From IMG/VR virus record IMGVR_UViG_3300042307_000844: a stretch of 64,000 nt of DNA, one strand, 5' to 3'. The position numbers were made by a program, and so were the translations under genes. Position 1 is the stretch's first letter; every line of letters begins with the position of its first letter. Below, piece by piece: positions 40,189-63,561 of the stretch. The notes under the pieces are model-generated. The model ran no database searches, was not told the DNA's origin, and was given only the letters and a program-made list of their open reading frames with translations. The stretch comes from a virus. Lineage: Duplodnaviria > Caudoviricetes.

Positions 40189-43100
40189 GAGGGGATCAGG
40201 CGAAGTCGGCAAGGAACTCTTTCAGGGTGCTGCCGTTGACCGTGACAGTCTCACCGTCATAACAATCAACTTGTGCGTAGAACGTGAAGGCTCCCCGCTT
40301 GCGGGACATGTAAACGGTTTCGGAATCTTGCGCGTTCCAACGAAACCCCTTCTTTTCAAGGACGGTGACAACGGCAACGAATTGTGGTAATGTGGTGGTA
40401 TTCATGGTAGTAGCATCTTACCCTAGTTTTTATAGGGTGATGATCTCCGCATCCTTCAGAGTGGCGGCGAACGCTTGCGCTTCCTCCAAGGTAGCGTAGC
40501 GGGAGAAGCCGAAGGCATCGCAAACCTTGAACTTCTTTGCGTCCTCCTTGGCGCGATAGGCATCGAAGGCTGCGGCTTCTGCGCGTTGTGCTTCCTCCGA
40601 TGGAGTGCAGCGTCCGGTGAAGTCATACTCAGGTGTCAGGTATCTCATGGTAGTAGCATCTTACCCTAGTTTTTATTCTCCACAGGCTTTCAGGAAAGTG
40701 TCAATCAGTCGCAACCATGCAACATCATCTCGTCCTCATTCATCACTTCATCCTCACTCTCAACATCACGAACAGCGAGGGCAAACGCTTGTGCGTAATC
40801 CATTCCATCCCCTAGTCCACGGTGGATGAAGTTTTCGCCGGAGAAATTCCAATGCCCGATCTCAACTCGAACCTTGGCGAACCTTGCACAAGCCCAATGA
40901 GGTTGGACATCCTTGGAGATGACAGTGAAGGTTTCTTTGTAGCGTGGGGAATAATAGGTGGTGGTCATGGTGGTGTTGATGGTGTTGGTCACAAGGGCAT
41001 CTTACCCTAGTTTTTAAACGCTAGGACGTTGAGCGTGTCGGATGCGCTCCCCCCGTTTTGATCATGCTTCGTAAGCCATCCACGTTCCCGCGTCATATGG
41101 CTCCGCATACAGCCCCAAGGACTTCAGGGCTTTCTGGACTTCAGGATGCACCTGCTCGTCGTGGTAGCAGTCGAAGAAGGGCATTCCATCCGTGTGAAGA
41201 TTCCCTTCTTGGCGAAACCAGATGCCGCCTTCCTCCCCATCCCATTCGGTGGTGGATACGGCTTTGATCTTGGGGAACAACTCATTCAGCTTGGCGATTT
41301 TGTTTTTCATGGTGAGGCTATCTTAGGCTAGTTTTTAAAAGGGGGATCGAACCCCTTTCGCTTATCAGATCAGGCTGAAGACCAGCAACCAGCTTGGACT
41401 ACCGTCCGGGCCGTGACCGTCAGACTCCACACGCTTACCCGTAGGAGTCTTGCAAACTCCATCCATTCCCCACCGTTCCAAGGAGGACATCGATGGGGCT
41501 TTGAATGCGCTTGTGATACGCACCTGAAGCGGTTCGGGATGCGCTGGCGAGTGAACAAGGCAACGGCTGTCCTTGCCCTCGATGAAGGAGACGGGCAAGC
41601 CCTTGGCAAGTGTGGAACCGTCTTTGAGTAGGATGTCTTTTTGTGTTTTCATGGTAGTAGGATTCTAGGCTAGTTTTTAACCCTCGTTGTTATAGGTGGT
41701 TGCGTGAGACTTCTTTGTAAAGGCGCGGTATCCGCCACCCACCCGCACAAGGTAACGGTAGTTTGGGTGAGGATTGTCCTTGGCGTTATTGTCAAACGTG
41801 GTGATACCGTTCTCAATGGAAAGGTCAGCATCCATGTCAATCTCATAGGATTGAATGAACACGTTCGGGAACTCTTCGGATTTGTATCGGGTGATCATGG
41901 TGAGGCTATTTTGTGCTAGTTTTTATTCGCGTTTTCCCAGAGGGTTTTGATTTCCCATTTGTCCCATATGATTTGATCTTCATCGGTGACATCGTTCCCC
42001 ACGTAGAGAACGGTTTTCCCAAGCTTTGCGGGACGGGTTCCGGTTCCGGGTCGTCCATACAAGCCAGAGGTTTCCCCACAGTAAAGCGTATGGGTTGCGC
42101 CTTGTGCCTTTGACCAGTCACAAGGTGCGCCCCCATAGACTTCATGGGTCTTGCCATAACTCTTTTCACGGACTCCCGTGATGGAGGTTTTACGGGCGCG
42201 GAGGATGTCTTCCAATGGGTAGTTGCTCATGGTGCAATCAGTCTAGGCTAGTTTTTATCAGGCGTATTCTGCTCCGATCAATTCGTTACCCCAGCGAACG
42301 GGGCGACGAGCGAAATTTGAGATGGCAATTGCCTCATCCCTTGTGATGGCATAGGCAAGGACTTGTCCGCTGGCGGTGAATAACATATCGTTCATGGTGC
42401 AATCAGTCTAGGCTAGTTTTTAAAACCACAGATAAAGGAAAAACAGGAGAAGGGCGAAAGGCCACAAGCCATAGGCAAGCAAGCCGACAATGGCGAGGAT
42501 AAAAATGAGTTCTTTCATGTTAGTTTTTAAATGGTTTGCCCCTCCCCGGAACCACCCGGAGAGGGGACTTTTACCATGTTACCCCACGAAAGAGAAACCC
42601 GCTTGGGCGATTGCGCCCCGAACCATGCCTTGTTGCTTTGAAGTTGTGACGCTGTAGCGGTCAGGATTGACCCAGAAACCGCCTTCCACACGCTTGGCAA
42701 GGGGGAAGTGGTAGCCATAGCTGTAAAGGGTGTCCCCTTCGATGAACATGCTCTTCAGGCTATTCTTGCCCTTGGTTGCGCCGGATACGAATGCTTTAAC
42801 GATTTGTTTGTTGGTCATGGTGGTGTGTGTTGTTGGTGTTGGTTACGAGATCAGTCTAGGCTAGTTTTTATCCAACCGTTACCGTTGTCCCAAAGGGAAG
42901 GTGCGCGGTGAATGGAAAGACCTTGGCAATGTCCACCTTGCCATCGCTGGAAAGGGTGAACTTGGAATGGCGGGTGTTTCCGACAGTGATGGAGACGAGT
43001 ATCAGTTTCATGGTGAGGCTATTTTGGTTTAGTTTTTATGCGATGGAGTCGATGAATGCCTTGGCTTCCGTGGTTGTCAAGGTGTGTCCGATCTTCCGCA

Positions 43101-45632
43101 TGTCAGGGGAATAGATGTCAAATCCATCCCCGATCATGCCCGACTTAATGATTGTATGTGTTTTGTATTTCATGGTGCAGCTATCTTACGCTAGTTTTTA
43201 AGGGGATTGAACCCTTAGGTTTGTTTGATTAACGGCCATTCAAAACCATCTTAATGGCTTTCACGGTGTCGGGCTTCCACCCGTAGCAACGGGCATCCGT
43301 CTCCAGATTCATGGCGACTCCGAAAGGCATCCCCTTTCCTTGTTGACCAAAGGTGAAGTTCTCCACCGCGATACGTTTGGCCTTTGGATACTTGGCCATT
43401 GCTTTCTCGACTGCTTGTGTGTGTTCGTTCATGGTAATGTGATGTTAGTCTAGTTTTTAAGCAAGGCGGGACAACCAGACTTCGCTCGCCTTTGGCAATC
43501 CCCTCTCAGCAATCGCACCGTCCCGCATGACTTCCTTTGTCATGGCTTTTCTTGCGCTTTGAAGGGCTTTGATTTGAGCCAAGGAAGGGGCGCGATAGCT
43601 TGGGAAAACCGCTTGAATCGCCTTCTCTTCCGCTTGCAAGTTGCGGTGATTCTCTTCCGCGCTCTTGAAGGAATCAACATAGGGCTTAAATGTAAGTAAA
43701 CGCTTACCTTTCACCTTTTCCCCGTCCTTAAAGAGATTGTAGCATCCTACGCCAAGGGGAACGATGTTCGCTTCACGGGCGGGGACGATCTTTTCGATTT
43801 CAGGTATTATATCAGATATATGTTTCATGGTAGTAGCAGTTTACGCTAGTTTTTAAAAGGGGGATTGAACCCCTTTCGGGGTTGGTTTAATATCCGGCAA
43901 ACTTGAATTTCACCTCTCCGAACATATCGTCTTCGAAGTAAAACCAGCCACCCTTAAAGGTTATTTCCTGATGCTCCCAAAGGATAGGGAAATCGGTGGA
44001 TACCTCATCGAAAAGGATGAAATGGGGAGGAGTTCCAAACTCATCGGCGGGGTGATATTCAAATTGTCCCAGAACGATGTTGCCATCGACATAGGTTTCA
44101 ACTGCGATGGGGGCGGTGCTTGTTAGTTGTATTTTCATAACGAGACGATCTTACTCTAGTTTTTATCCAATCAGGATGAACAGGATGATGGGGGTGAACG
44201 CGAACAGGAAGAACGCAGCGAGGGTGTCAAGGATGAGTTGTTTCATGGTGCAGCTATCTTAATCTAGTTTTTAAGAGAAGAGTCTGTCCACATGGCGAAC
44301 AATCCAAGGCTGGTTTCTGTCCTTCTCGATGGCAGCAAAGATTTCCTTGCCCTTGTGCATCACCCGGACAGTCCCGGCTTGCCAGTCCTTTTCCACGGGC
44401 AGTCCCGCGCTTTCCAGAGCTTTTACCATTGCTTTAACGTGTTCTTTTGTAAGTAATTTGGTCATGGTTAAATCTTAGTCTAGTTTTTATTCCTCTTCTT
44501 CCTCTTCTTCCTCGTCCTCTTCTTCTTCCTCGATGAATCCTTCGCGCTCGCAAAGGTCTTGAACATCGGCTTCCGACATGTAGGAGCAGAAGGCACTGAT
44601 CACGGTATCCTTATCAAGAATACCCTCTTCGATCATTTCAAGCAGTTGGTTTGTGTATTGTCTGGTCATGGTGTTATCTTAATCTAGTTTTTAAACGATC
44701 ACATATTCCCCGCGCTCCAATAGAACCCCCACAGGATCATCCTTTCGCTCATGGATAAAAATCAATCCTTTTTCCTTCCAATCGGGTTGATTGGTGGCAT
44801 GGGAGAATCCATAGGTCTTGCGAACATCAAGAACAATATCAGTTCCCAACAGCTTGTAATTATGTAGTGGCTTTGCTTTCATGGTGAGGCTATCTTACGC
44901 TAGTTTTTATCGCTTCAAATTCATTTGAATATTTTCGCTCATCCGCATTCACCCTTGCCATTTCAGCAAGGACAAAATCCTCGACAAGTTGCGTTTGCTC
45001 TCCCGTGATAATGCCTTGTTTGTAAAGGTTGTATGCAAGGAACTCAAAGGTCGTGGTGAGCTTTCCAACAAGATATGGGTAACAGATAGGTGCTTCGTTC
45101 ATAGTGACAATATCTTAGGCTAGTTTTTAAATGGTATCACAACCCGCCTTCGGTTATGTTCAGATGTTGAATAGGTTGAGGATCTCAACTTTCATGTTTT
45201 CCAGATACGCATCCATGTGTTCCGCATCGTATTCCATGGAGACTTCCATCTCAAAGTAATTGGAGATTTCATTTTGATATTGCAGAATGATATCTGCGAT
45301 TTTTTCTTTCATGCTGTCAGTGTTTTGTGGCGTGTTCATGGTGACAATATCTTAGGCTAGTTTTTAAATGAATTGGGCTACTACTGTGGAGCTTCCTACC
45401 AATTCTTCCTTGAAAAAGCAGTCATTTCTATCAGAATTCCATCCACTGAAAAGGAACTTTCGCCCCTCGTAGGTGAGAACTTTCTTACTAATTTTCTTTA
45501 CATCATCCCATCCGTTAGGGACTTCGATATAAAGCCATCCACGCCCATCGGTGGAAACACGGTAATCTGCTTTGATTTCTTTCGGGTTAATGGTGATGTT
45601 GGACATGGCTAAATCTTAATCTAGTTTTTAAA

Positions 45633-45707
45633 TGGTGGAGCGTGTAGGAATCGAACCTACATTGGAGGTGTAGAAAACCTCAGTCCTATCCGTTGAACGA
45701 ACGCTCC
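45633..45707 (-). tRNA. tRNA-Arg(UCU)
   Basis: GAGGT-TTTCTAC-ACCTC; GGAGCGT/ACGCTCC-A-CCA. Confidence 0.93.
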
Positions 45708-45730
45708 GATTTTGTGTTAGTTTTTAAGAG

Positions 45731-45806
45731 TGGTGCGCCCGAATGGATTTGAACCATTGACCCGCCGATTATGAGTCGGATGCTCTAACCACTGAGCTAC
45801 AAGCGC
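45731..45806 (-). tRNA. tRNA with CAU anticodon, probably Ile2 (lysidine type)
   Basis: TAGCTCAGTGGTTAGAGCA..CGACTCATAATCG resembles bacterial ileX-type tRNAs; CCA. Confidence 0.85.
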
Positions 45807-45810
45807 ATTT

Positions 45811-45826
45811 TGTTCCACGTGGAACA
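45811..45826. promoter_or_regulatory. parS-type palindrome TGTTCCACGTGGAACA
   Basis: Perfect 16-bp palindrome matching the chromosomal parS consensus, intergenic between two tRNAs. Confidence 0.8.
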
Positions 45827-45834
45827 TTGAAAGG

Positions 45835-45917
45835 TGCTTCGGAAGGGACTTGAACCCTTACGCCATTACTGGCAACGGATTTTAAGTCCGTAGTGTCTGC
45901 CATTCCACCACCAAAGC
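45835..45917 (-). tRNA. tRNA-Leu(UAA)
   Basis: ACGGA-CTTAAAA-TCCGT, long variable arm, incomplete CCA. Confidence 0.92.
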
Positions 45918-46638
45918 ATGAGACTTTATTTAACGATTCCGTTGTGATAGTCAATCATGTCTTGGATATCGGATTCGGTCATTGTTTCGTTCATGGTGCT
46001 ATTTTGGTTTAGTTTTTATCAGTGTCCCATAGCAACCTTGAATCCATATTGGTAATATCCACCAGTATCCAATTCGGAAATAATTACGTCTTTCGTCCAC
46101 ACACCGTTCCATTCCATGTGATAGACTTGTCCTAACGTCATTATTCTAAATTTTGTCGTTATCATAGCTTTATTCTGCGCTAGTTTTTATCGTGTTCCTT
46201 TTGCGATTTCAGCATGATGATCGGCTTGATACTTTCCGGCGCATATTGTGATTGTGCCTTGAAAAATCCCACCCAATCCCCGAATTTGTCGATCAGCTTT
46301 TGCTTTTGCTCGTCGGTGATGAAGTCGCCTTTCATATACATTCCCGCTTTTGAATTGTCCTTGTTTCGCATGATTCCGCTTTCATGATATCGAAATCCGA
46401 TATTGCAAGCGAAGGAAATAAAGTCTTATTCCGTTGGTTTTCTTTTCATGTCAAAATCTTACGCTAGTTTTTAAAACCAATTGCCTCCATCCTTTCGTAT
46501 TCCCCTATCCCAAAATCTTAGCCAAGGCTAAGTTTCTTAGTCCTAACATACTTTCTTAGCAGGGACTTAGATTGTTTTTCATGGCTAAGAAACTTAGCCT
46601 GTACTAAGTTTTTTAGTCTTGACTAATAACTATCCCTA

Positions 46639-47019
46639 TCAGTCTTTAATCCTTAATTGTTCTACCTTGATTCCCATCTTATCAGCAATTTCTTGCAATG
46701 TCATTTCAACCACTTTTGGGCGTTTGTCAAATAAAACTCCATAGGAGTTTTCCCGATAGATTTCATTGCCCCTTGAATCGTATTCACTTTTACTCCAATA
46801 ACCAGTGGAGTCTTCCCGATAGATTTCATTGCCCCTTGAATCGTATTCACTTTTACCCCAATAACCAGTGGAGTCTTCCCAATAGATTGTATTGCCATTG
46901 GTATCCCGTTCTCTTTTGCTCCAAGAACCAGTGGAGGTTTCATAATAGATTGTATTGCCATTCTTATCTTTGATGACGAATGGAAATGTTGTTACTTTTA
47001 ATTGTTTGGCGATTGTCAT
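46639..47019 (-). CDS. Repeat protein (YxEDSTGYWxKxEYDSRGNEI units)
   Basis: Near-identical 60-bp tandem DNA repeats at ~46750-46930. Confidence 0.8.
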   Translation of the reverse strand: MTIAKQLKVTTFPFVIKDKNGNTIYYETSTGSWSKRERDTNGNTIYWEDSTGYWGKSEYDSRGNEIYREDSTGYWSKSEYDSRGNEIYRENSYGVLFDKRPKVVEMTLQEIADKMGIKVEQLRIKD

Positions 47020-48218
47020 AGTGCTATTCTGCTTTAGTTTTTAAGAGAGAAATCCGATCCCCATCAATCCATATAAACCCCAGCCTTGGAAAGTTAGTCT
47101 CCTCAAAGTTGCCACCATTCCACCAGTGTTTCCTCGGGAATTTCCATCCTTTTCGCAGCATTGGCCATGCGTTTGCATTCCCTGTATTGCTGGGGAGTCA
47201 TCATGGAATCATCGAATTCCTCCCGCCCATTGCTTACATCGGATGCAAAGCAGAAAAGGATATCTTTCCCATCGGGTTCCTTATTGTTTTGTGTATTGTA
47301 AATACTAGCGAAGTAATCGAAGGATACGCTGTTTCTTCCCTTGGAAACCCTCACCTTGTAATGGTTATGTATTCCCATTGACCACGTTGGTTGCTTGGTA
47401 TTGGAAAGGGTTGTCTTGATTGTGATTCCGTTGATTGTGTCTTGCATGTTCTTATTATCGTTTAGTTTTTAAACCAATCCCACAAGTCCTTCGGATTCCT
47501 TAATATCCTTGAAGTCTTGAAGGTGTTTTTCTTTGAATTCATGAAATACTTGGAATGATTCTGCTTGTTCTTTTGAATACACTCCCCCTTTGGAAACACG
47601 CAAACCGCTTTCCTCATGGATGATGCTTGCGTGTCTTCCCCAAGATAGGGTTTCAGTTTTCAATTTGAATCCGATTTTCTTTAATTCTTTTCTTAATTGA
47701 TTTAATGTCATGGTGCTATTCTGCTTTAGTTTTTAATACTTCCTCTCCACCTTGGGGCAAATCTTCCGCAGGGCGGTTTCAATATGGGAATCGTTCATAT
47801 ACTCATAAAGCTCATTGATAAAATTGTATTGCTTTGTGGAAAATAGGATATCCCACACGAATCTCTTTTGCAGGTCTTTCACCCTATCGGCACGGGGAAA
47901 TTGTCCTTGTTCATAAAGGGATTTGATATGTTCTATTCCCCCGCATCTTTCCGCTTCCGTATTGATAATGGTTTCCAGCTTTTGGTAATCCTCCCGTTTG
48001 ATCTTCATGGCTTTATTATCCTCTAGTTTTTAACCTTCGTAAAGTTCCTTGCCTTTTTCAATGATCGCTTTCATTCCGCTTGGGGAAAGATTGTAATCCC
48101 CTGCCATCTTTTCAATTGTCAGATAATTATTAACCCAATCCAGATACGTTTTGATTGTCCATGCATCCAAAGCTTGTTTTGCTTGTGTTTCGGTCATGTC
48201 CAAATCTTAATCTAGTTT

Positions 48219-48782
48219 TTAAAGGAATGGATTGGGAATCATTTCCCGTATCATCTCACAGTGTTCTAACCTTGCTGCTGACGCTGCTGACCGTGCTGTT
48301 GACCATGCTGCTGACTCTGCTGACCATGCTGCTGACGCTGCTGCTGACGCTGCTGACTCTGCTGACCATGCTGCTGACCATGCTGCTGACGCTGCTGCTG
48401 ACGCTGCTGACTCTGCTGACCATGCTGCTGACCATGCTGCTGACGCTGCTGCTGACGCTGCTGCTGACGCTGCTGCTGACGCTGCTGACCGTGTTTCTTC
48501 GCAAGGGTTTTCAATCCATGCCCTTGCAGCTTCAATTGCAAGTTTTGGGCGATTTTCCCCTTTAGGTATATTGACAAGACATTTTTCCGCAAATGCTATG
48601 GACAATCTCACTGATTGTTCCTTTTCAAGAGGTTTGCATTTTTCAAGCATCCAAAAAAGCCATTCTGGTTCCTCACAAGCATCCCAAACTTGGGACATGG
48701 TTTCGTGGCTTAGAGCAAATTCTCGCCCTTCCTCACACATCTCATTCGGGGAGTATTTGTTACAAAATTCAGTCGTGTTCAT
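48219..48782 (-). CDS. Protein with an Ala/Ser/Trp low-complexity repeat tail (SAASAAWSAAES)
   Basis: Motif promoter upstream; GCTGCTGAC-type microsatellite-like repeats at 48270-48490. Confidence 0.8.
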   Translation of the reverse strand: MNTTEFCNKYSPNEMCEEGREFALSHETMSQVWDACEEPEWLFWMLEKCKPLEKEQSVRLSIAFAEKCLVNIPKGENRPKLAIEAARAWIENPCEETRSAASAAASAAASAAASAAWSAAWSAESAASAAASAAWSAAWSAESAASAAASAAWSAESAAWSTARSAASAARLEHCEMIREMIPNPFL

Positions 48783-50307
48783 GGTGTTATTGTATTCTAG
48801 TTTTTATTGTTCAGTTTTTCCGCCATTGCTTGGGCTTCCTCCATCGTTTGGATGATCTTCCCATAGAAGTAATTGGAATAGGTGATTCTTCCGCGATCAT
48901 TGATTTCCATGGAAGGCTTGTGAATCACTTCATAAGCTTCCTTGGGGGAGGGCATTGCGCCATGAAAGGAAACGTGTTTGGGTAATAGCAGATGGGCATA
49001 TTCATCCTTGAGCTTCCATAAGGGATTTGATATCGCTTTGTAGGTCATGGCTAAATCTTAATCTAGTTTTTAACCCGTGTGATTTGCACCAGTTCAATCC
49101 CATAGGTATCCCCTTGCCATGATATGATGCTATTCCAGAACCAATCTTGGATTTCAAAAACATCCCCCCCCTTGCGATATTCCGTGATGATTTCCCCACA
49201 ATCCTTGTAAGTGATCCTGTATTTGTTCATGGGGTAATTGTGGTTTAGTTTTTAAGCTTTTCTTTTCTCCAGATCAGATTCCCCGAATGTCGCCTGTCCC
49301 AGAAAGTCAAATTCCTCATCAGTGCATACGTTTTTAGCGGAGGCGCATTCGTTGAGCCTGTCAAACCCTGTCACAATACAAGTTCCCCAGCGAGGGGCGT
49401 TGAATTTGTCGCCTTTGCGAACGGGCTTTTGATCGTGGTATCGGAGTGTCTTCATGGCTCTATATTACGCTAGTTTTTAAAGAGGGCATGGGCATTCCCC
49501 ATTCACCCAATCGCAAATTTCCTCAGATAATTCGTTAATCGCACTTTGGAGCGTTTCAATGTTCCTCCCCTTCCAATGCTCTCCCATACCATCAGGAACA
49601 GCGAGGATTTTGCGCTTGCCTGTCACAACATGGATAGGATAAAAGAACCATCGGCTCCCCATGTCACTTGAGCGATCCCAAGCTGCATCAATGCTTTTGA
49701 AATTCCTTCCTTCCGTAACCATTTCACCATCGATGGCAATACATTTGAGTTGAATCATGTCGTTATTATGGTTTAGTTTTTAAAAGTCTGATTCAGGGCA
49801 ACAATCGGGATTATAGAAACTTTCCACCTCCTCCCCAATAGTTACCAATTGCAGATATTCCACATTTTCATCATGTTCATATGAGTCAAAAGCGTGTTTG
49901 GCATCTTTCAGAAATTGAAAAGATTGGTAAGTCTTATCACAATTTCCCCATTCAATCAGTAGTAAGTAAGGCATGGCTTTATTATTGTTTAGTTTTTAAA
50001 GGCAGCTTTCGGCATCTGCCAGAATTTCCTTGGCAACCTCTCGACAATTGGAATTCCGAAAGAGATATCCCACTCCCCACGTTGGATAAAGATAAGCTCC
50101 CCCCGTATAGCTATTATCCCCCGTTTGATATCCCCATTCCCCATTTTCCGTATTGATCCCAATTGTGATTTGCATGGATGGCGTATCCCCATCCTCAAAT
50201 GCACGGGAATCCTCATCAATGTATTTCTTGCAATGTATGAGAAGCTTTGTAATTTCCTTGATCGTTGGTAGCTTGTGTTTCGTCATGTCCTTATTATGGT
50301 TTAGTTT

Positions 50308-50766: not shown

Positions 50767-50797
50767 CGTGCTTTTATTTTATTCTAGTTTTTAAAAG

Positions 50798-50875: not shown

Positions 50876-53800
50876 ATTTTTATTTAATTTTATAGGACTT
50901 TTTCAAATCTCGCAAATGTTATAAATGTCTTCAATTTCAAAGTGTAGAAGAATCAATTGCCTACGCATCTCCCCAAGTTCCTTTTTCACTTTCTTCATAT
51001 GAATCTTGGATTCAAGAGAGATATTTCCTTTTTCTTTATTGGCAATGTCCTGAATCATCGTTGCCAATTGCTGTTTAATGCTCTCGTATTGGTGCATGAT
51101 CAAATCTTAATCTAGTTTTTAAGTAGTCGGGCGGTGTATTTGTCAATTGCGGGTTTCAAATCGTAAATCAAATCTCTCAAATACAATGCAACTTCACTCT
51201 CCCCCGCTGAATGTCCCCTTTCATATGCCATATAGGACAAAACTGAAACAAATTCTTCGGGAATGCTTTTCAATAGAAGCTCAGATTCCGTGGTTTCCTC
51301 AATCACCAGATCATCGCAAAAATCCATTTCATTTTCAACCTGCTCTTTGGTTGGATATTGGCAAGTGTATTTATACTTTGCGCTTGTGCCGATATAAATT
51401 TTGTTCATGTTTGAAGTATCCTCTAGTTTTCACTCGCCCAAATATGTCCACCCCACAAATCCCAACCTTTGGAATAGCTCATCCTTGAAGATTGTTCGTG
51501 CTTCCTTTTCCGTCAAACGGATTTCCAGAGTATCCCCTTGGCATCCCTTGATTGCAGCGAACAAATCCGCGCTTCTCTCAAACCGATACAGACCTGCTTT
51601 GTGTTTCATGTTTGAAGTATCCTCTAGTTTTTAATAAGACATGATTCGGTAGAAATCATCATTCTTGTCCACCCCAGCACCCGTTTCAGCAAAAGCAATC
51701 GACAATCCTTTTATGAACCAATCGGCTTGCTCTTTCGTCAGACCATAGGCGGAATCCCTACCGTTCATTCTCACAGTGAAATACCCATTTTTGTCCTCTT
51801 TGAGTTCAATGCGGTGTGTCATGGGCTGATTATGGTTTAGTTTTTAAATTCTGATACTCCCGCCCATTCCAGAAGTTGGACATCCCCTGAATTGATATGC
51901 TCTTTCAGGGATTCCAGTTCCGCGATTTCCTCATAACTGATACGTTCCGCTTCAATCTCCCCGCGAAGGTATTCCAATCGTTTTTGAATTTCGTTCATGG
52001 CTTAATTATCGTTTAGTTTTTAAGAGATTTTGGCAACCATCTCCACCCCATTCAAAGGGCGAGCGAAGAAAGCTTCGTTCCTATCGCTATTCCATCCCGT
52101 GTAAGCGAATTTCCTCCCCTCAAACGTGAGAACCTTTTTCACAAGCTTCTTCACATCATCCCATCCTTCGGGACAATCCACTGTCAGGAATTCCCTCCCC
52201 ACATCTTCCCGGATGCTATGTCTCACTGTCACTTCCTTGGGATCAATTGTTGCTTTCATGTCCGTATTGTGGTCTAGTTTTTAACCTCTTGATTTTCCTC
52301 ATTATCCCAAACCATGAAATCAATCCGGTTCAAATCTTTCCTTGGCTTGCGATTCGTGAAACGTTCATTAGAATCAGACAAACGAACAATCGTGAATTTG
52401 TAAAGATTTGAAAGAGGATTTTTCATACCTTTTGCGGGCGGGGCTTGCCAATGGATATAATACATGTTCATGTGCTGATTATGGTCTAGTTTTTAAAAGT
52501 CGTCCCCTTCCCTTGCAAACCCTACTCACCAGCGGGAGGAAGGGGACTATCCGACGAGAATTTATAGGGCGATCTTGGCTTGGAATGCGCCATTGACTCG
52601 CGGTTGGATATACGATCCACTCTTGGAATGCCTCACCTTTGCGTCAGGATGCTCCTGTAGGGCGTTTGTCGCGGCAAAGAACCTTTCCCGCTTGGCTTTC
52701 TCTTCCGCCGCCTTGTTGCGCTCCTGAAAGAGCAATTCAACCCGTTCCGCCTTGCGATGGGCGCGATCCTTTTCCGCGAAGATCATTTTCAGCTTCTCCG
52801 AACGTGTGAACACGTTGCCCCTTGATGCTGCTCGGAAGATCGTTGGTGCTGAGTTCTTGCTTCCCATCCAGTTGCTTTTAAGTGTCGTTGTCATTGTGGT
52901 ATCAGTGTAGGCTAGTTTTTATGCTTCCAGATTCAGGAGAGTCATACGGATTTCAATGGATACCCGCAAATCCCTGTCAATCTCGGAGAATTTCTTAGTG
53001 TAGAAAAACAAATCTTCCATGAAAATCTTGCGATTGTCAGAGGTTGTTTCGTGAAGATTTGCCTGAAGCTTGTCGCGCTCTTCGTAGAGACGGTTGATCT
53101 TATCTTCGTGGTATGCGATGTGTTCTTGCTTGGTCATGGTGTTATTGTGTTCTAGTTTTTATGCGTCTTGAAAGTTCTCCAATGCTCGGCAAAGTTTCCG
53201 CTTGTCGGCATGATCCATTTGCATTTCACTGGCAATGAACATAATATCACCATCCTTTAGGTTTTGGATGAAATCCAGCAGGGCATCCCGCTCATCTTCC
53301 GTTAGCTTGTTGAGTTTGTCTTAGTAGTAGGACATGGCTTTATTATCGTTTAGTTTTTATTTTTTCCAAAGAATTTAGAAAATCTTCCGCCGCCCATTTG
53401 AAATCGAGTGCGAGTGTATTATTTAAAATCGCTTCTCGTAGCCAGAAGGCTAATTTTTCAGCATTGTTCAAAAATTCATCGTCCATGGGTTCAGTATCGT
53501 TTAGTTTTTAATATCCGTTCTCCAATGCCCAATCCTCAATCTGAGAAAGAACCTTATTGGAAATCTTCTCTTCCCCCCCATTATCTTTCTCAAGGAATCC
53601 CATGTCCAGAGCAAGACCAAGGGAAGATGCTCCCCCCGTATTGCTCTCAATGTCACAATATGATCGTTGATCCCCTCCCTCCTCAAAGAGTTCCAAGGTG
53701 ACGGTATATTTTCCAAATGTCTTGGTAATGGTTTCGTTTCTCATGGCTTTATTATCGTTTAGTTTTTAAGCGAAGTTGGTTTCGTATTCCGAATGGATTT

Positions 53801-56800
53801 CCCCGTTTTTGAAAATATAAATATATTTCACTTCCTTGTGGAAACCTTTCTTTTCCGCGAAGCTGTCCCAATAATCACAGTCAATTATATGTTCCTTGAC
53901 CCATGCTTTGGCTTCCTTGATTGTCAGGTGTTCCATGGGAGTTCCGATATGGTATTTCTCCCCATCAATCTCTTCAATACCTACGGTTTCAATTGTCATG
54001 GCGTAATTATGGTTTAGTTTTTATTCAGCAGTCCATCCCGAATCGCTTGCGTGGTTTCCTTGTTCCACCCATACAAACGGGCATCCATGTCCAGATTCAT
54101 CAGGGCATTGGGAATGTTTCCGCTATAGTGCGCGGTTCCCAGAAAGTTCCACACAGCGGTTTCGTTCACCCTTGCGCGATTGGCAAGCTTTTCAATCTCT
54201 TCCCTCGGTATCTTGTTCATGGTCGCAATATTAATTTAGTTTTTAAGATTTCCAGTTCCTTTCGAATCTCTGCGATCTTTACCCGATTTTTAATAAAGTT
54301 ATCCACGATATACATGGGAACTTTACTTTTAATTAAAACCTGAGAGGTTTCATCCATTGACAACATCCCCGCAAGTTTGATTTCCAATCGATCAATCTTT
54401 TCCGATAGTGTTTCTCTTTTGAATATGTTCATATGTGTATTATGGTTTAGTTTTTAAGATTCTATCTCTCTTCATGTTCAAAGGGAGGAGACACGTAAAA
54501 ATTATCATACCAGAGAGAATAATTTTCGTGATAAACGGGACTGAGAGGATTGTTGGACAACCTAAATTCCATGTCGCTTTTTGCAGAGATCATTAAAGCG
54601 CACAAACCACTATCGTTTTTAGACTCCCACGCTCTTATCATGGATTTGATTTTACTTTCCAGAACACAAATCCTTTCGTGTTGTGCGGATGAATATTGTC
54701 CATACCTATTCAATTTCCTTTTCATGATAGGATTGTGTGCTAGTTTTTAAAGGACTTCAATTCCCCGCGCCATCAGATATCCCGTCATAACACCTTGGAT
54801 ATATGATTGCGTTTGCTGGTATGTCCCATAATCATCGGGAACATAATATTCCGATATCATATCACAATAGAAATATCTATCATCACAACGAAAATTGTCA
54901 GTGGAGAATCCCGCACCCCAATTATAATTGAGGAATCGTTCAATCAATTCTTGCCGATATGGTTCCATGTCTTCTTCAAACGCATGGTCGTATTTGATAT
55001 ATATAATTTCTTTTTGCATATCATACATCGTGTGAGAAATCAATTGCAATATCCCATAGAACGTGATCGGAATCATCCAACCATTCCTCATGTCCCAGCG
55101 CATCTGCACAACATTGTGCTGCTTCCGTCCAATTGGAAAAGTCTTGCATATTAATGGCGAACCATTTTTCAATTTGTTTTTCCTCTGTCATGTCGTAATT
55201 GTGTTCTATTTTTTATGCGCCACCGGAGCATCCCCACAATCGTTCTCTTGAACGTAGCAAGCTCCCACATCCTGAAAAACATCCAGAAATTTCTGGATCA
55301 GTTCCACGCTATTCCCCCACATTCCAAGAGAGAAAATGATTCCCCGCTTGCCAAGTTCCCCGTGGCATTCCTCAAAATCTTCCGTGTCCATATGGACAAA
55401 CATTTGCCGTTCGTCAACCCCATCCTTGAAACGGAAGATATAGAAATTCCAGTGAGGATCATATTCAGGCTTTACAAATACATTGGAATTGCTTACAAAT
55501 GTATTTGTAGCTTCTCCTTGAATAGTTCTGATTACATCAAGCACCCTCTTACCAATCTCCCGAACATCAATGTTGTCGGTAACTACATATCCTTTAGTGT
55601 CGCATCCCATGGTTGTATTATGGTTTAGTTTTTAAAAGCAATAATCTTATTCCAAGATTCTCCCACCTTGTGATTCCATTTCCATGCCAACTTATCAACC
55701 CGACGATTCCAGTATTTCCACCTACGGAAATTCCCACGTATCAGGCGATTTTCATTTTTGATTGCTTGGGATAACTTTTCTCTCGTAGTCATGGCTTGTT
55801 AGCGATAAGAGATTCGAGAGCTACCACCTGCTCGTGGACTTCGCATGTTGCCAAATTGTAGTCTGGTTTTGTGCCGTGCTCGTATCCGCCGTTATAGAGG
55901 CAGACGAGCGACATACACTCTCCATTCGCGTGTCGGTTGCAGCGAGATTTCAAATCGCTAACAAGGCGGTGGAGGACAACAGCCTCCCGTTGAGTCTCAG
56001 GTGTATTCATAGATTTTCGGCGGGAGGCTGTGCCTCACCTTGGTCGATATTGGTTTAGTTTTTAAATAGAAATTCCTGCTCATTGTCGATGGATTCCTTA
56101 CACTCTTCCATGTCATCAAACTTGAGAAAACGTTCTTGCGTATCGGAATAATACTCAAACATTCCAGAGGGGAATAGAATAGTGATACCTTTGCCGTTGT
56201 GTTCAATGTAATCAGTCATGGCTTTATTATCGTTTAGTTTTTAAGATCACCGATCAGTCCTTGCGCTTGCCCAGACCTTGACAATCTCTCCACTTTTCAA
56301 CTTAACTTCCACGCTGTTAATGGTTGCCGAATCCTCAATGACTTTCTCAATATCCTTGGAAAATTGATAGGATGGGCAAGATGAATATCCGATTTGCCAT
56401 TGTTCATCCAATTCTTGGCATTCCTCTCGCTCAATTTCCTCCCCATCCCTTGTCCCTTCGGAGATACGCCATTCCGCCACAATATCCATGGGAATGCTAT
56501 AATCACCTTGGCATCGCATGAACAAAGGATAGGCATAACCTCCCCGCACATCACATCCCGTATGGGCATAGCATACCATGATAGCTTCGTCATCGTAAAT
56601 CCAATCCCGCTTCACATTATCAAAATGGGAATATACTTCCCATACATAGTCCTGAGATAAGTCATTCTCATTATTATATGTATTGTCCCTTGCAAGTTGT
56701 GTTAATCCCAACACTTCGGTTGCAAAGGTTTTCCCTGCTTCAAACCATGATAAATCGGAATTCTCTTCCAATGCCGCCCATGCTTCAAATTGCTCTTGGA

Positions 56801-57496
56801 TATCGAAATCCACTTCACAAGTTTCAGCAAGGAAAAGAGCGGTTTCAATGGTTGCGGTAACATCGTTACCATATACATCGATCCTCACCATCGGTTGCTC
56901 TTCGGAGATTGGAGGCTTTTCATAATGCCTTCCGTAGTAGTCTCCACTATCCAACATGGACTTGCCTGTATTGAATCGGAATGCCTTGGCGATTGTCTCT
57001 TGGTTCTTGGTCATGTCGTAATTGTGTTCTAGTTTTTAATGCGTCTTGGTCTTGTCGGATTTGTCGGGCGCGGTTCATCCACATCATTGACATTGCGAAA
57101 GATGTTCCTGTATGCCGCCACAATCACCCCCATGGGCAATCCTGAAACTTCCGCCATCTTTTCCATGCTCACATCTTCCAGAATGTATCGGGCGGAACCA
57201 ATGGCTTGCCAACGATCATCGTCAGTCATGTCCTCATAGGGCTTGATGTTTTCAATGTCCATGTCGTAATTATTGTTTAGTTTTTATGGGAGGAGATAGT
57301 AGCATTCCCCATCCTCATCCCTCCAGTATCCCCCGAACAGACTTTGATCCTTACACCATTCAAAGCGTATCATCATCCCCTTGCATTGCTTTTCCGTTCC
57401 CCGGAAATATTCGGGAAGATCAAGCATGTCCGTTCCCTTGTGCAGATGTTCCAGAGTGTGTTTAACGATCTTCATGATAGGAGTATGCTCTAGTTT

Positions 57497-57982
57497 TTAT
57501 ACCGCTTTAATCTCACCCTTACAGCACATGCAAGTGTATGTTTTACCCTCCATGATCCGATTCACAATCGTTTTGGATACAGTATGTTGACGGCATCCAC
57601 AAGCGAAGAGATATTTCTTGACCTTGCGTGTCCTCTCAATGCCTGTAACATCGTAGCTATGGCATCGTGGCATGGTTTCCCCCGTAAGCACACGGCAAAA
57701 GTGACCCCATTCCCTCCCATGTGGCTTGGAATGGGGATAATGCTTGAACTGTAGGATGTGTGCCATTTCATGGGGGACCGTGCTGGACAAGAATTCGTCC
57801 ATGTGCCTTTCAGCAAGAGCGAGATTGAATCGCATCTTGTGGCTTCTACGGAAAGCCTGTCCAGCGGTAGCACCCTTGAGAGAAAAATCAATCACACACT
57901 TGGGGAATTCGTAACCCTTAATTCGGGCAACTTCCGCAAATTGTTGGATTGTCTGGTGAATTCGGTTCTTGGTATCGGTCAT
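57497..57982 (-). CDS. SprT-like zinc metalloprotease
   Basis: AG.A...RFN...TVPHEMAH...HG.EW...C.C motifs. Confidence 0.88.
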   Translation of the reverse strand: MTDTKNRIHQTIQQFAEVARIKGYEFPKCVIDFSLKGATAGQAFRRSHKMRFNLALAERHMDEFLSSTVPHEMAHILQFKHYPHSKPHGREWGHFCRVLTGETMPRCHSYDVTGIERTRKVKKYLFACGCRQHTVSKTIVNRIMEGKTYTCMCCKGEIKAV

Positions 57983-60947
57983 GGTGGGATTATCTGCTAG
58001 TTTTTATACGCAGAGATAGACTCGCTTGCTTGATCCATCCTCATTGGAGTAGATTGTGATATATGGGAACATGCGAACACCATCCCTAACTTCACTCTTA
58101 TCAAACATCAGATCATATTCCAGATCGGATAAGTCCTTGGGAAGCATATCTTCGTATTCCCATTCCACAGTATATAGATCATAGTCTTTCATAATATTAA
58201 AGGTTCCTGATTACCGTATATCAGGATCGGGCGGGAGCTTCCGCTATGCTTGGCTATGGAAACATATCAATCAATCACTTCTTCAGTGGAGAGAACGTTT
58301 TCCATCTTGATCGTGAAGCATTCAGGCTTTTCCTTTTCCCCCGTCAGTTTCTTGGCTTCCGATGGAGTGAGATATGTGGCAAAGATATCTTTTGATATCT
58401 CATTACCATTGGCAAAATATCGCACAACAGGAATCGAATCAGTTGGATACATGCGAAGATAATAATTGGTATTGCCTTCCTTTTCATATTTGATTAGGTA
58501 GGGAAAGTAGGCCCACTCCCCGAAAGGAAGGGATTGAACTTCCCCACGTTCGCCGGATTCGATCCCAGCCTTGACACTGGAAAGATTGGCGAAATCAAGA
58601 CCAGAACGAATAATTGAAGTGGTGCGTTTTTCCAGAACAACATCCTTGAATGAGGCTGCTGGTTTTGGATTGCTTTTCCATGCCGCTCGCATGAATTGAC
58701 CCTTTCCTTTGAAAAAGTTGGAAAGGATTTCGTTGGCAGTCAATGACTGAATGTTTGTAGTGATGTTCATGTTTGTAGTGTAGTCTAGTTTTTAATAAAA
58801 AATGTATCCCAGCCCAAGACTATCTTGTTGGAGATTTCTGAGAACGTTTTTCAATTCCTTTACACCCGTAGTATCATAGTCCTCTCCCATGTCCTTGGCA
58901 TCAAGAACCATTTCAAAGAAACATTCCCCGATTGCTCCCATGAGATCGTCCTTACTATCGCACGTAATGGCGGTTGTTGTCTTCCCATACATTCCCCGTC
59001 CACTGTAATCTTCGTAAAGGGATAGGTCGTTTCCGTAATCAATAATCATTTCTGCGATGTCTTTGTTCATGTGCGTATTATGTTTTATTTTTTAAATAAT
59101 ATCAATGTGTGATTTTTCGCAATCCACTGTGATCATGGCAGAGAATTGATCGACATTATGATCAATCTCCACAATTCCATCCTTAAAGTCCTCCGCAAAA
59201 AATGTATAGAATTCCCGATTTTCAGCATTCATCAAATCGGAGATATTGTTGTGAGCATCCGCCACATCAGGATAGATATCAACCGGAACATACATTAGAA
59301 CCGGAATCGCGTGGTATTGTTTTGTCATAGTATAAGTATCGTTTAGTTTTTAATCCAGATTCGGAACCCATAGATATGCTATCAATAAAGCAACACCCCA
59401 TAGAAAGTTTCCTGATATCATCAGCCAACACATTGTAATGAAAATAATTCCAGTTATCATAATTAAAATTCCTCCCCTTCTTCGGTGTAGATATCCGCAT
59501 CTTCATCCAGATAATCCATGATACATTCCTCACTTGTGAGATATGCGTATTCGTTCTCCAGAGTATCGCAGAACATCTTGGCGACTTGATCAAATGCCTT
59601 GCGAACAGTTCTCCCATCAAGCAGTTCCTTCCATACGCATTCCACGATGTCCTCGTCAAAGCATACACCCGTGAATCCGCACACACCGGGGAATTCCATG
59701 TCCTTGAAATGTTTGGGACGCGCATAGCCATTGTCGATCAGAACCCGCAGAAACCATGCCAGAGCGCGATTGCCTTCCAAGTCTTTAACGTAATAATTAG
59801 CAACTTTCACCTTCCAATTTTGGCAATAGCTACCAAAGGAATAGTCAACCAATCGCAGATTGCAAGCTTCACAGACTGCTTTCAGGGAATCCAGCATCTC
59901 TTGGGAAGTGAATTCCAAAAGACATTCATCGTTCTCCGCATCCCTGATCTTGTTGGTGATTACCCGTGCTTGCGCTTCGGGAGATAACTCCTTGTAGGAG
60001 TAGAGTTGTGTGGTGATTGTTGTCATGGTTTGATTGTGGTTTAGTTTTTAAAAGCGAATGCTTCAGGATACGAGTTCCATGCGGGATTCTTTTTCCGTAG
60101 GATTTCCAATTCTTCCAATGTCGGCTTGTTGTCCTGCTTTGCAATCCAATCAATGGCATGGTATCGTTCAGCGATTTTCCGTTGGGATTGGTAGAACATT
60201 TGTTGTTGCGTCTGCATGTTCAAATATTAATCTAGTTTTTATTCCTCCAACCCCAAAGCTTTCAACATGTCTTTTTTTGTTTTCAGTTTATTTGCGTATG
60301 ATATATCAACATCACATCTAGTAGCTGTCATATCCTCCCAAACCTGAATTCCCCTTGAACGATTCGTCTTACCTTTGGTAATGAAAATACAATCGTGACA
60401 ATGGGATACCCTATAATTGTTTTGCTCCGCAATTTCAATCACTGCTAGTATCTTTTTAGAGATATTTTTCATATCCAAATCTTAATCTAGTTTTTAAAAG
60501 TGGTCGGGCGTAATGCTATTCCCGTTCCTTCCGTCTCAGCATTTTTCCCGTCCGAGCGGGATTAATCGGAAGCTGTTTTTGACACTCAAGCCTCTACCAG
60601 AGCATGGGAAAATTCTTTCTCCGTGATATCAGCATCCCCATACTTTTCCATCCATTCCATGGCTTCTGATTCGCTTAGGGCGATGATATCAGAAGAACCT
60701 CCCCGCCCGTTGTTTCCAACTGGACATGAATATTTGCTCATGGCATTACCAGAACCATATAGAAAGTAATTCCCCTTCTTGGTTTTGTAAAGCGATTCAG
60801 TGTAATGATTGAAATCCGTTGAATAATAATTATTGGAATAATAATCAATTTCAGTTGCGGTTTCCGTGTTATAGACTTTTCCTTCGATTACTTTTTTCAT
60901 ATGTTTCTTTCTCGTTACGACCAAATCTTAATCTAGTTTTTAAAAGG

Positions 60948-61051
60948 TTGGGGCGGGAGGACTTGAACCTCCATCGCTGACTCGTCTGGCAGACAGTGGA
61001 TATCATGTCTGTTGCGACCACATGCCGACATACCATTAGTCGCACACCCCA
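60948..61051 (-). ncRNA. tRNA-like RNA (104 nt) with an expanded anticodon/variable region
   Basis: Acceptor TGGGGTG/CGCCCCA, D arm CGAC-TAATGGTAT-GTCG, T arm GGAGG-TTCAAGT-CCTCC; 52 nt between the D and T arms. Confidence 0.7.
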
Positions 61052-61404
61052 AATCTATCATCCAGCAGTAAGAACCAGATCACCCCGCTTGATAAGCTTC
61101 TCACGCTCCACGGGATTGACAAGAGCAGATACAAAGCTTCTCTTGTTCTCCATACCCAAGCCGAATTCAGCGGAGTATGCCTTACGTCCAAGGTCTTTGT
61201 TCGATCCACCAGTGCCATTGCCCCTAGTCCAGAATTCCGTCGCACCTTGGGCAAGGTAGAACATGTTCCCGCCGCGATTACCTGCACCATTCCATGCCAG
61301 AGAGACGATTTCCGTCATCTGATTCAGAGAACGGGTGGAAAGCTTCTCATCGCTCTTGGTCTTGTCTTCATGTTGTCAGTGTAGTCTAGTTTTTAAAGAG
61401 CATG

Positions 61405-62037
61405 TTAGTAAGCCCATTTAGCATCCCCAAGGATTTCTGTTGAGTCTTGCCACCAGTCATCCCATTGTTCGTTTGTAGCGACATTCCAATCAGGTATGCG
61501 CTCCACTGCACCTTTCGGAGTAAGACTGATTGGCAACCATTTCAAACGGTTGTTTGGATAGATTGCAATTTGTCCATTTGACAACTTCACAACATTCCCC
61601 TCCTTGTGTTCTTCAAGAAGTTCCACATCGCCAATGTCAATCATCCCAGCAGCTTGTCCTTCTGGAAGGAAATCAATGGTGAACCAGTAATGTCCAGTCA
61701 TGGGGGCGCAACCTTTCCCCATATTCACCAACATAGGGACATCTGCAAGCTGACTTTTCTGCCAAACCTCGATACTACCCGTTAAACACTCCCACATTTG
61801 CACTTTATGAAGCGGAAGATTAACTTGTTCACCATTCGGCTCATAGTGATAGACACATTGAGGGGGAATCTTGTCGAAACAAGCAGCAAATCGATCTACC
61901 CAAACTTGAAAGCAGAACGGACGATTCCGCATTGCTCTGACACTGAGTAACCACGCAGGTTCAAAATCAGTCTCATTACCACCGAATGCATCGGCGCGAA
62001 TATAGACTCTGGCTTTAGGTATATTAACGTTTCTCAT
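61405..62037 (-). CDS. Conserved hypothetical phage protein
   Basis: Long ORF; start at MRNVNIP. Confidence 0.7.
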   Translation of the reverse strand: MRNVNIPKARVYIRADAFGGNETDFEPAWLLSVRAMRNRPFCFQVWVDRFAACFDKIPPQCVYHYEPNGEQVNLPLHKVQMWECLTGSIEVWQKSQLADVPMLVNMGKGCAPMTGHYWFTIDFLPEGQAAGMIDIGDVELLEEHKEGNVVKLSNGQIAIYPNNRLKWLPISLTPKGAVERIPDWNVATNEQWDDWWQDSTEILGDAKWAY

Positions 62038-63561
62038 AATTTTATCCTTCGATGCAATGCTCATCAAATTTCGCAATCGCCTCATCCAGATTGATGGGAA
62101 GGAAAGATGGCTTGCTGCCGTTCTTCATATCCGCAATGGGATTTGCCCATTGATCCGATTCTCTTCCCAAATACCAGTAAGCTTTCTTGTTCCTTGCGAT
62201 GACCCTACCAGAGAATAGATTACCAGTAGGAATCCCATCCGTCTCCACAACGAATCGGGTGTTCTTTTCCTTGTCAATGTCCAGAGGAATGAACATGTAG
62301 TATTGTTTGGTCATGGCGTTATTGTGTTCTAGTTTTTATCCAGCAAATCCAGCACCCATTGAAGGCGGAATTGTGCGGGGAAACGATCAGAAATATATTG
62401 AAGATTGATAAGGATTGATTCTTCCGATTCATATCCATAGGTATCCACTCCCTTTCTATTATCTAAAGGCATCCACCCCCTCATTTGATCATACCAATTC
62501 AGATAGCGAAGTTCAGCAGCAATCTCTCCCCTGTGTGGTTTCAGGATTTCAATAGCTTTGGGGAGTGTCATGTCCTTCAAACCATAAAAATTTGAAAATA
62601 CCCGTCTAAGAATTTCATAGCGATGCTCTCGCTTCCTTTGGATTCTGTTGATTGTTGTTCTCTTCATGGCTCAAGTATCGTCTAGTTTTTAACCCCTTTG
62701 GGTAATCTTACCATCCGCATCCCAAGCTTCCACTCTCCGATAGCTAAGACTTGCCTCAATAGCATCCATCGTTTGTTCCACATAATGGGAAAGCTTGCAG
62801 GTTTCCAGATAGTTCCATCTTTTGGTGAGTTCTTCATCTGTCCACTCCTCAAATTTATCTACGAAATCTTCCATGGGTTGATTATAATTTAGTTTTTATC
62901 CAAACTTCGCGCCACATAATCCTCAATCCCATCGCTTGGATCGTCCACGCATACCAGAGAATTGTTCAGCATTGCCTTGATCTGATTCATGTTCAGGGCT
63001 TGCATATCATCCTCTACTCCCAACCACCCTTCAACATATTCTCGAACTTGTTTGATTGTAAATGTTTTATTCGGCATGAGAACAGTGTGTGCTATTTTTT
63101 AATTCACATATCGTAATAGATAGTGTCGTTCGCATCACCAAACAACCTCTCCATCAAACGGTTCTTCCATAGCCTGTCCGTTTCGTTTCCAACCTCTCTC
63201 ACTACGTTTCCAATGATATCCCTAAACGATGGATACTCTTCGTAATGCCCGATATAATCAGAATAACAACCATCCCAATAGATATCAATTTTCAATCCTT
63301 TTTTAAGTTGTCTTTCCTTAACCGTGAAACCAAGTTCTTCCAATTGTTCTTTTGTCAATGCTTTCATATTATTTTGATTGAGGAATCATCATATTGTGAG
63401 ATACTTCTTTAATATCGCCATCGTGTTCAACATAAAGAGTTGAAGCATCGGGATTACAATCCTGCATAAATAGACATGCTTCGGTTATTTCAACAACTCC
63501 TAGATTCCTATGTGTTGCTTTACCCAACTTAAAATCATTATCAAATTTAATTTCTTTCATA

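Follow-up and report, generated by a model that had tools for sequence, protein, structure and literature searches.

A repeated putative promoter element joins small gene cassettes and coincides with their rearrangement junctions in an uncultured T4-like phage

Promoter early stem-loop (PeSL) cassettes have been described in the T4-type phages RB49/phi1, PST/T4 and nt-1/KVP40 (Arbiol et al. 2010, PMC2839356; Comeau et al. 2014, PMC4122927). As cited in PMC4122927, Arbiol et al. 2010 reported that DNA between two tandem PeSL repeats is deleted as mini-circles. Here we describe an array of this kind in the IMG/VR virus record IMGVR_UViG_3300042307_000844 (Duplodnaviria; Caudoviricetes), of which a stretch of 64,000 nucleotides (nt), called the window below, was analysed. 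In this array 75 copies of an element built around the box AAAAACTAR join small gene cassettes. Like PeSL, these are repeated promoter modules between small open reading frames (ORFs) of unknown function in the hyperplastic region of a T4-like genome; close relatives differ by indels, replacements and displacements at the modules, and homologous recombination between repeats serves as the explanation. Unlike PeSL, the element has no -35 box, only a -10-like hexamer with an invariant spacer box instead, and most copies lack a stem-loop. There is no Shine-Dalgarno sequence, the ATG following 6 or 9 nt after the -10 hexamer, and the stop codon of the upstream gene lies inside the module. The copies are also far denser (75 in 23 kb, and 114 in a complete relative), and the box has clade-specific dialects. 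The system thus works like PeSL but fails three defining PeSL features, the -35 box, the stem-loop and the Shine-Dalgarno sequence, and is an unusual variant of PeSL cassettes.

Other known systems share some of these features. In the middle promoters of T4, where sigma70 is remodelled by MotA and AsiA, the MotA box TGCTTtA is centred near -30, 11-13 bp upstream of the -10 hexamer. The present element likewise combines a -10 hexamer with a phage-specific upstream box that replaces the -35 box, but its box differs in sequence and ends 2 nt from the hexamer. Leaderless transcription is a second point of comparison. Sevostyanova et al. are said to have found in 2007 that the middle and late genes of the Thermus phage phiYS40 are leaderless. 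In the experimentally studied leaderless mode of Deinococcus-Thermus, a -10 motif (TANNNT) lies 6-7 bp before the ORF and the -35 box is dispensable (PMC12340547). The present element resembles those promoters in its TANNNT hexamer near the start codon (here 6 or 9 nt), the absence of a -35 box and the absence of a ribosome-binding leader; it differs in an extra invariant 11-nt box, which conservation suggests is needed, and in belonging to a T4-like lineage. Integron arrays also consist of single-gene cassettes in one orientation whose content varies between relatives. Unlike them, the array has neither attC sites nor a single Pc promoter, no IntI was found in the complete relative, each cassette has its own box and hexamer, and the crossover point is not fixed.

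The reading that we favor, and regard as fairly probable, is that a clade-specific promoter class, leaderless transcripts, a stop for the upstream gene and general recombination between elements belong together in this one element. The window has 76 occurrences of the box AAAAACTAR where 2.1 would be expected, and no more than 5 were seen in any of 100 shuffles. Seventy-two of these copies lie on the minus strand, from 40033 to 62897. A weight-matrix scan added three boxes with one mismatch, AAAAAATAR, at 63100, 59093 and 55214, and a further variant box, TGAAAACTAG, is found at 51431. The boxes with a -10 hexamer total 75 between 40431 and 63100 on the minus strand, with a median spacing of 258 bp, which bears out the original prediction of about 75 cassettes joined by one motif. 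An ORF of at least 25 amino acids stands directly behind 70 of the 75; the other five boxes front tRNAs or very short ORFs. The prediction that the cassettes hold single genes is correct for most, except that about six genes come second in a two-gene cassette and have no box of their own. The motif proposed at the outset, (T)AAAAACTAR, is present, but the conserved element is longer, comprising the box, a YAnRAT hexamer and a fixed spacer, and both it and the genes lie on the minus strand. Nor is the box limited to 40.2-63.1 kb: further copies occur at 37745 (minus), 35332 (minus) and 29335 (plus), and across 67 kb of the complete relative.

When the copies are aligned, the element reads W-T-AAAAACTA-R-a-n-Y-A-n-R-A-T, followed by 6 or 9 nt and ATG. 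The base before the box is T in 72 of the 72 exact copies, which was not a selection criterion; the invariance of the box itself in these 72 copies follows from how they were picked. The -10-type hexamer YAnRAT lies 2 nt downstream of the box, with A2 in 70/72 and T6 in 70/72 copies. These two are the -10 bases read by sigma70-family factors through region 2. The ATG follows the box after 14 nt in 46 copies; in about 19 the distance is 17 nt. The hexamer accordingly ends 6 or 9 nt before the ATG. This leaves no room for a Shine-Dalgarno sequence, and none was seen between hexamer and ATG. Upstream of the box the aligned copies have zero information content, and 44 canonical -35/-10 pairs were counted where 36.7 would be expected, which is no enrichment. 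In alignments of orthologous promoters to four relatives, box positions -1 to 7 had mismatch rates of 0-0.04, hexamer A2 of 0.00 and T6 of 0.03, compared with 0.13-0.35 elsewhere in the promoter. As far as such conservation can tell, the element is under selection. The junction at 48780-48807 (minus) is representative: the closing TAG of the box is the stop of the upstream ORF 48797-49048, and beyond it the hexamer TACAAT and 6 nt lead to the ATG (48782) of a 187-amino-acid ORF.

Other promoters of the window share this geometry. Before a few genes the canonical promoter TTGACA-N17-TAAGAT-N6-ATG has the same distance from hexamer to ATG as the box promoters, and late genes carry TAAATA about 5 nt before the ATG (TAAATA-N5-ATG), which also matches. 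TTGACA, box and hexamer are combined in two promoters, one at 37720-37760 in the window and one at 71820 in the complete relative; the box stands between TTGACA and hexamer in both and thus occupies the -35/-10 spacer of a sigma70-type promoter. The proposal that the motif is a promoter gains support from the -10-like hexamer at fixed distance and from A2 and T6, conserved between copies and between orthologous promoters. On these sequence grounds the element would be a -35-independent promoter giving leaderless mRNAs, with its activity, start site and early timing being predictions. None of the literature searched connects the motif with a phage promoter. On both strands of window positions 1-40000, late-type genes have TAA(A/G)TA about 5 nt before the ATG and no Shine-Dalgarno sequence, for example before 13546, 16482, 16903-17577 (minus), 26664-27071 (minus) and 37784, and the late transcripts likewise look leaderless. 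Host-type promoters are found in the window at 5404 (plus) and 38731 (plus), the latter driving a NIF-like (HAD) phosphatase at 38731-39252.

Relatives for a comparison of the box between clades were chosen by their capsid protein. The complete relative mentioned above, G001 (207,489 bp with terminal repeats, capsid protein 92% identical), contains 114 forward and one reverse box copies from 7.5 kb to about 74 kb, a span of about 67 kb. The boxes are sparse before 42 kb, where they front larger genes, including two RNA ligases, a KaiC-like ATPase and a denV-like gene, and dense from 42 to 67 kb; late-type promoters occupy the rest of G001 on both strands. This distribution indicates that the box marks a regulon and is more than a local repeat. 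AAAAACTAR is used by genomes with 87-92% capsid identity. In G007, a complete genome whose capsid protein is 75% identical, the window's box occurs at background level only, and 59 one-strand copies of AAACACTAR-NN-TAnAAT-N6-ATG are present. G008, also with 75% capsid identity, has 54 copies of TAATTAAAACCGAA-N-TAnAAT-N6-ATG and neither AAAAACTAR nor AAACACTAR. G007 and G008 thus agree with the window in the -10 hexamer and in its N6 distance from the ATG. Orthologous genes are found behind each clade's own box. Among the 101 box-driven proteins of G001, only three have box-driven homologues in G007 and five in G008, which means that the turnover of these genes is very high. A host-type class, TTGACW-N14-TGn-TAnnnT-N6-ATG, is common to the three clades with 7-10 copies each, compared with 0-1 in reversed-sequence controls; judging from its spacing, this small class is also leaderless. 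The concerted change at about 60-110 sites, with host-type promoters unchanged, suggests a co-evolving trans-acting reader of the box, which is probably phage-encoded. Such box dialects between sister clades are new here. In G009 (229.7 kb, capsid protein 62% identical) no box was detected by k-mer counts. The top repeat of that genome is a 57-nt coding tandem unit (containing CCCAAGAAATTGTTG) with 33 copies in one 10-kb stretch at 90-100 kb, and is probably a repeat-protein gene, not a promoter.

The element also contains the end of the preceding gene. Forty-eight of 70 ORFs end inside it, 32 at the T-AA that opens the box, 13 at the closing TAR and three deeper inside, in the -10/ATGA part, which agrees with the claim that the upstream stop merges with the motif. 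Every copy has stop codons in two frames, and a third-frame stop lies in the hexamer region in 36 of 65 regular promoters. Two frame-shifted stops are kept in each dialect, and many upstream frames end there in G001 and G008. The genes abut, with 23-26 nt from stop to ATG. Second genes of two-gene cassettes start -8 to +4 nt from the upstream stop in four of five cases (ATGA, TAAttATG), a close spacing that fits termination-reinitiation and not initiation led by a Shine-Dalgarno sequence.

Exact-pattern scans of IMG/VR yielded 16 loci in related contigs, made up of mosaic blocks of 70-98% identity, and homology-block breakpoints were assessed in nine related IMG/VR contigs. Among unique block starts, 33 of 60 lie at -5 to +2 of the first A of the box (null 2.7%, p 4.5e-36), and 39 of 67 block ends lie at +5 to +35 of the box (null 10%, p 4.6e-22). 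At simple deletion junctions the two sides overlap by 20-37 nt, which is the shared promoter. The cassette-level map has a collinear backbone with many single-cassette losses or replacements and several order changes. Cassettes 23, 24 and 25 (53509-54244, minus) are in the order 23-25-24 in the 207-kb relative. The three junctions of this swap are all on boxes, the two swapped proteins are unrelated, and the first junction has a chimeric promoter made up of both parental -10/spacer segments. For the variable -10/spacer segment in general, linkage to the one or the other flank gave identities of 0.69 and 0.63, in comparison with 0.49 for random pairs and 0.86 for syntenic pairs. Since the segment is only partly linked to either flank, crossovers seem to be spread over the element without a fixed site. 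Alignment of relatives thus speaks for the idea of the motif as a recombination anchor: breakpoints are concentrated at the box, and the order of genes is only partly kept. In DNA runs, joints (including those of a 'goes back' type) were rejected as circles or deletions; their sides are at most 36 nt and lie inside the repeated promoters.

According to the favored reading, the invariant box (T)T-AAAAACTA-R would lie at about -25 to -15 with the sigma70-type -10 hexamer 2 nt downstream. Because the hexamer ends 6 or 9 nt before the ATG, transcription is predicted to start on the start codon or at most 3 nt before it, which would give a leaderless mRNA without Shine-Dalgarno sequence. The same element would terminate the upstream gene via its stop codons. 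Near-identical copies of 25-30 nt recur every ~260 bp on one strand, so that the general recombination of the phage could cross over between elements, and whole promoter-gene cassettes would be deleted, replaced, duplicated or reordered. A phage-encoded specificity factor may act with the host RNA polymerase, as suggested by the clade-specific dialects. The breakpoints on boxes, the order changes, the architecture and the conservation are observed in the sequences; the recombination mechanism is what we infer from them. Several points weigh against this proposal. In four lake or freshwater metatranscriptome runs, found via the capsid gene, only tRNA look-alikes were detected on the array. No box-reading factor was identified in searches of the relatives. 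The phage epimerase gene, examined as a pointer to the host, matched many phyla at 45% identity or less and was uninformative. Box 45725 lies only 9 nt before tRNA-Arg, and a start 7 nt after the hexamer would truncate that tRNA. Finally, the box is the whole intergenic space, so that a breakpoint on a box is at the same time one at a gene boundary; the surviving junctions would gather there even if the only force were selection for intact genes.

The last point is the core of another explanation, in which the element is only promoter and stop and plays no special role in causing recombination, junctions being found there because no others spare both neighbours. With 23-26 nt from stop to ATG, any whole-gene indel must break in the element, and about one third of homology-block ends lie elsewhere than on the box, as this explanation would have it. 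We nevertheless think it unlikely, though not negligible. Junctions retain exactly one intact element, deletion junctions have the above overlap of shared promoter, the reordered junction has a chimeric promoter, and promoter subtypes are regionally clustered. In addition, PeSL repeats of other T4-type phages are reported, as cited in PMC4122927, to delete intervening DNA as mini-circles.

The box might instead be a signal at the RNA level. Long read-through transcripts would then be processed at it into monocistronic messages or tRNAs, or it would enhance their translation. There are indeed almost no terminators between the cassettes: terminator-like sites in the array are not enriched (27 against 20.1 expected), and a hairpin of -10 kcal/mol or stronger lies upstream of 12 of the 75 boxes, compared with 8.8% of control 41-mers. 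A strong intrinsic terminator with a 16-bp stem and T-run (40152-40188, minus) closes the array after the last cassette ORF (40196-40405). An RNA signal would also suit the tRNA 3' ends that adjoin boxes, and box 45725, which is too near tRNA-Arg to be its promoter. The array includes tRNA-Leu, tRNA-Met and tRNA-Arg (45633-45917, minus) and tRNA-Ile with anticodon TAT (50798-50875, minus), which ends in CCA-CTTTT plus box 50792; tRNA-Met and tRNA-Arg end in CCA, 3 nt and a box. The statement that tRNA genes end at the same junction is thus true of Met, Arg and Ile (CCA, 3-5 nt, box) but not of tRNA-Leu. Against an RNA signal, the near-invariant A2 and T6 at fixed distance are typical of DNA recognition by sigma70-type factors and would be unneeded in RNA, promoters with TTGACA have an equal hexamer-to-ATG distance, and two full TTGACA promoters have the box in their spacer. 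We therefore consider this explanation quite improbable.

Further tRNA-like sequences stand next to boxes. An element of about 105 nt at 60945-61049 (minus) combines an acceptor stem of 7 bp (TGGGGTG/CGCCCCA) with a T-arm (GGAGG-TTCAAGT-CCTCC) and a long interior; it ends in ACC, TTTT and a box, and neither ARAGORN nor Rfam made a call. A second sequence like a tRNA 3' end (ending in GCCCGACCAC) lies just before box 60495. Box-proximal hairpins that resemble T-arms (GGGG-TTCGATC-CCCC followed by TTTT) are found at 41339-41361, 43202-43222 and 43857-43880 (minus), and these three may be terminators derived from tRNA ends.

What would read the box was also sought in the relatives. MotA and AsiA (PF09114, PF09010) had no match in the complete relative, and the control genomes were without these families too. 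For sigma70 region 2 the only match was a weak one, to the single gp55-like late sigma, and region 4 was not found in the relatives searched. The genes behind canonical promoters were rejected as candidates; no transcription factor is among them, and one is the NIF-like phosphatase. It has to be considered whether a phage-encoded RNA polymerase, and not the host enzyme, uses the element as its promoter, since the element's high information content, its length of about 23 nt and the clade-specific dialects recall T7-group promoters. This is very improbable, as no T7-type polymerase was found in four complete relatives (by a search that had no positive control) and the hexamer is of sigma70 type. 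T4-like phages, moreover, rely on the host polymerase. A bolder idea, possible but tentative, is that the box is read by a phage-encoded factor which co-evolves with about 100 promoters, giving a private, -35-independent, leaderless channel in which the element is also a universal stop and recombination joint. If true, any ORF dropped between two boxes would at once be terminated, transcribed and translated.

As for an integron-like system, in which a site-specific recombinase would cut at the box to capture and excise cassettes, the original prediction had pointed to it and the one-gene, one-orientation cassettes with junctions at one conserved site resemble it, but it is hardly credible: tyrosine and serine recombinases (PF00589, PF00239) were absent from the complete 207-kb G001 in searches that both had positive controls, no attC-like imperfect palindrome was found at the junctions, which are 25-nt non-palindromic promoters with rare upstream hairpins, each cassette has its own promoter, and the crossover point is not fixed. 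What G001 does have is a RecA/UvsX-type protein (E 6.5e-23), which together with the lack of such recombinases argues for PeSL-like homologous shuffling.

The array of 75 box-promoter junctions and cassettes extends over 40196-63108 on the minus strand and runs on past the window end. Each box is listed by its first A, from which it extends down 8 nt. Boxes 1-15 are at 63100, 62897, 62690, 62337, 61394, 60941, 60495, 60240, 60049, 59351, 59093, 58793, 58005, 57498 and 57285; boxes 16-30 at 57037, 56242, 56063, 55633, 55214, 54748, 54455, 54244, 54022, 53767, 53509, 53358, 53160, 52920 and 52494; boxes 31-45 at 52282, 52021, 51845, 51632, 51431, 51120, 50792, 50309, 49997, 49781, 49478, 49253, 49071, 48805 and 48220; boxes 46-60 at 48031, 47734, 47470, 47042, 46472, 46188, 46017, 45725, 45629, 45365, 45128, 44908, 44692, 44488 and 44272; and boxes 61-75 at 44164, 43854, 43458, 43199, 43037, 42869, 42528, 42421, 42256, 41924, 41678, 41336, 41015, 40674 and 40431, all on the minus strand. 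Two sub-arrays can be recognized. In the N14 sub-array (45606-63108, minus) the ATG is almost always 14 nt after the box, that is, 6 nt after the -10 hexamer, and the G+C content is about 40-45%. In the N17 sub-array (40196-45365, minus) a distance of 17 nt from box to ATG prevails (9 nt from the hexamer), and the DNA is richer in G+C (49-50% at 40-44 kb). In four lake metagenomes, contigs on 40.6-46.8 kb had about twice the depth of those on 46.8-60 kb, at 100% identity, and the part of higher depth largely coincides with the G+C-richer N17-type sub-array; apparently, coexisting phage genotypes have one part of the array in common, and the other part varies between them.

Some boxes lie outside the array. 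The promoter at 37720-37760 (minus, box 37745) is the one with TTGACA, the box in the spacer and TACAAT. Another, at 35310-35334 (minus, box 35332), precedes a 139-amino-acid ORF at 34890-35309. The sole plus-strand box promoter, at 29333-29373 (box 29335), is followed by a late-type TAAATA box and the ORF 29371-30135. A copy without -10 hexamer (40033-40041, minus) lies downstream of the terminator, with iteron-like repeats before it and G-runs after it. The non-coding stretch 40000-40150, past the array terminator, contains a direct repeat of 14 nt, GCATATCTAACAGA, in two copies 33 nt apart, as well as a palindrome of 10 nt, GTTAGATATG/CATATCTAAC; the repeats precede the hexamer-less box copy, and the G-runs, GGGATGGGGGGGTATGGGGTGGGG, come next. 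This stretch may be an operator or an origin-like site.

The cassette ORFs are real genes, judging from their codon-position mismatch against four relatives (0.084, 0.056 and 0.201 at positions 1, 2 and 3). Their functions are mostly obscure: Pfam matched three of 70 cassette proteins (SprT-like, weak ArdA-like and weak DUF4455), and the PHROG families matched by cassette proteins include 22 of unknown function. The SprT-like protein has 161 amino acids (57497-58005, minus; PF10263, E 3.5e-13). The weak ArdA-like, anti-restriction protein has 152 amino acids (50308-50792, minus; PF07275 with 23.3 bits, below the cut-off of 27; phrog_2059). A cassette with a 167-amino-acid protein (58267-58793, minus) is among the few box-driven genes kept in all three clades, where it stands behind each clade's own box; the protein has a predicted fold (mean predicted local distance difference test score 81.8) with neither a fold match (best E 0.16) nor a sequence match in PDB. 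PHROG 3704 'ferredoxin' (E 3e-33) is matched by the second gene of a two-gene cassette (61405-62037, minus), whose start lies 4 nt beyond the stop of the first. Tandem paralogues in the window were rejected as single-linkage artefacts; the proteins do not align. In a 51-kb relative, L010, four adjacent cassettes (sense 7984-9363 of the joined R2 sequence) have identical promoters and code for paralogous low-complexity proteins rich in Ala and Asp (MSNDT…), and this looks like a local expansion of a cassette family.

The window belongs to a distant, uncultured T4-like phage of a deep-branching lineage that is abundant in freshwater. It encodes a Gp23 capsid protein (601-2067, Pfam E 1.4e-83), a T4-type portal (13546-15369, gp20 Pfam match), ribonucleotide reductase and several homing endonucleases; genes of the GIY-YIG or HNH/EndoVII type lie among structural genes at 2079-2894, 11088-11861 and 15275-16408, all on the minus strand. 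Among cultured phages, cyanomyoviruses have the most similar capsid proteins, with no more than 34% identity, and megablast of 12 kb against 50,697 phage records gave no close cultured relative. Near-identical DNA is contained in lake-water metagenomes from 2018-2025, with contigs identical across those years.

In conclusion, these results extend PeSL-style, promoter-mediated modular shuffling to a deep-branching, abundant freshwater lineage of T4-like phages. There it would take a stripped-down form, in which one 25-nt element may serve as terminator, promoter, leader and recombination site. The prediction that follows is that the whole phage runs on leaderless mRNAs from three promoter classes. 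The clade-specific dialects would offer a well-defined setting in which to look for a new promoter-specificity factor. In addition, exact starts of hundreds of ORFan genes of these metagenomic phages would follow from the rule 'box + hexamer + N6 + ATG'.

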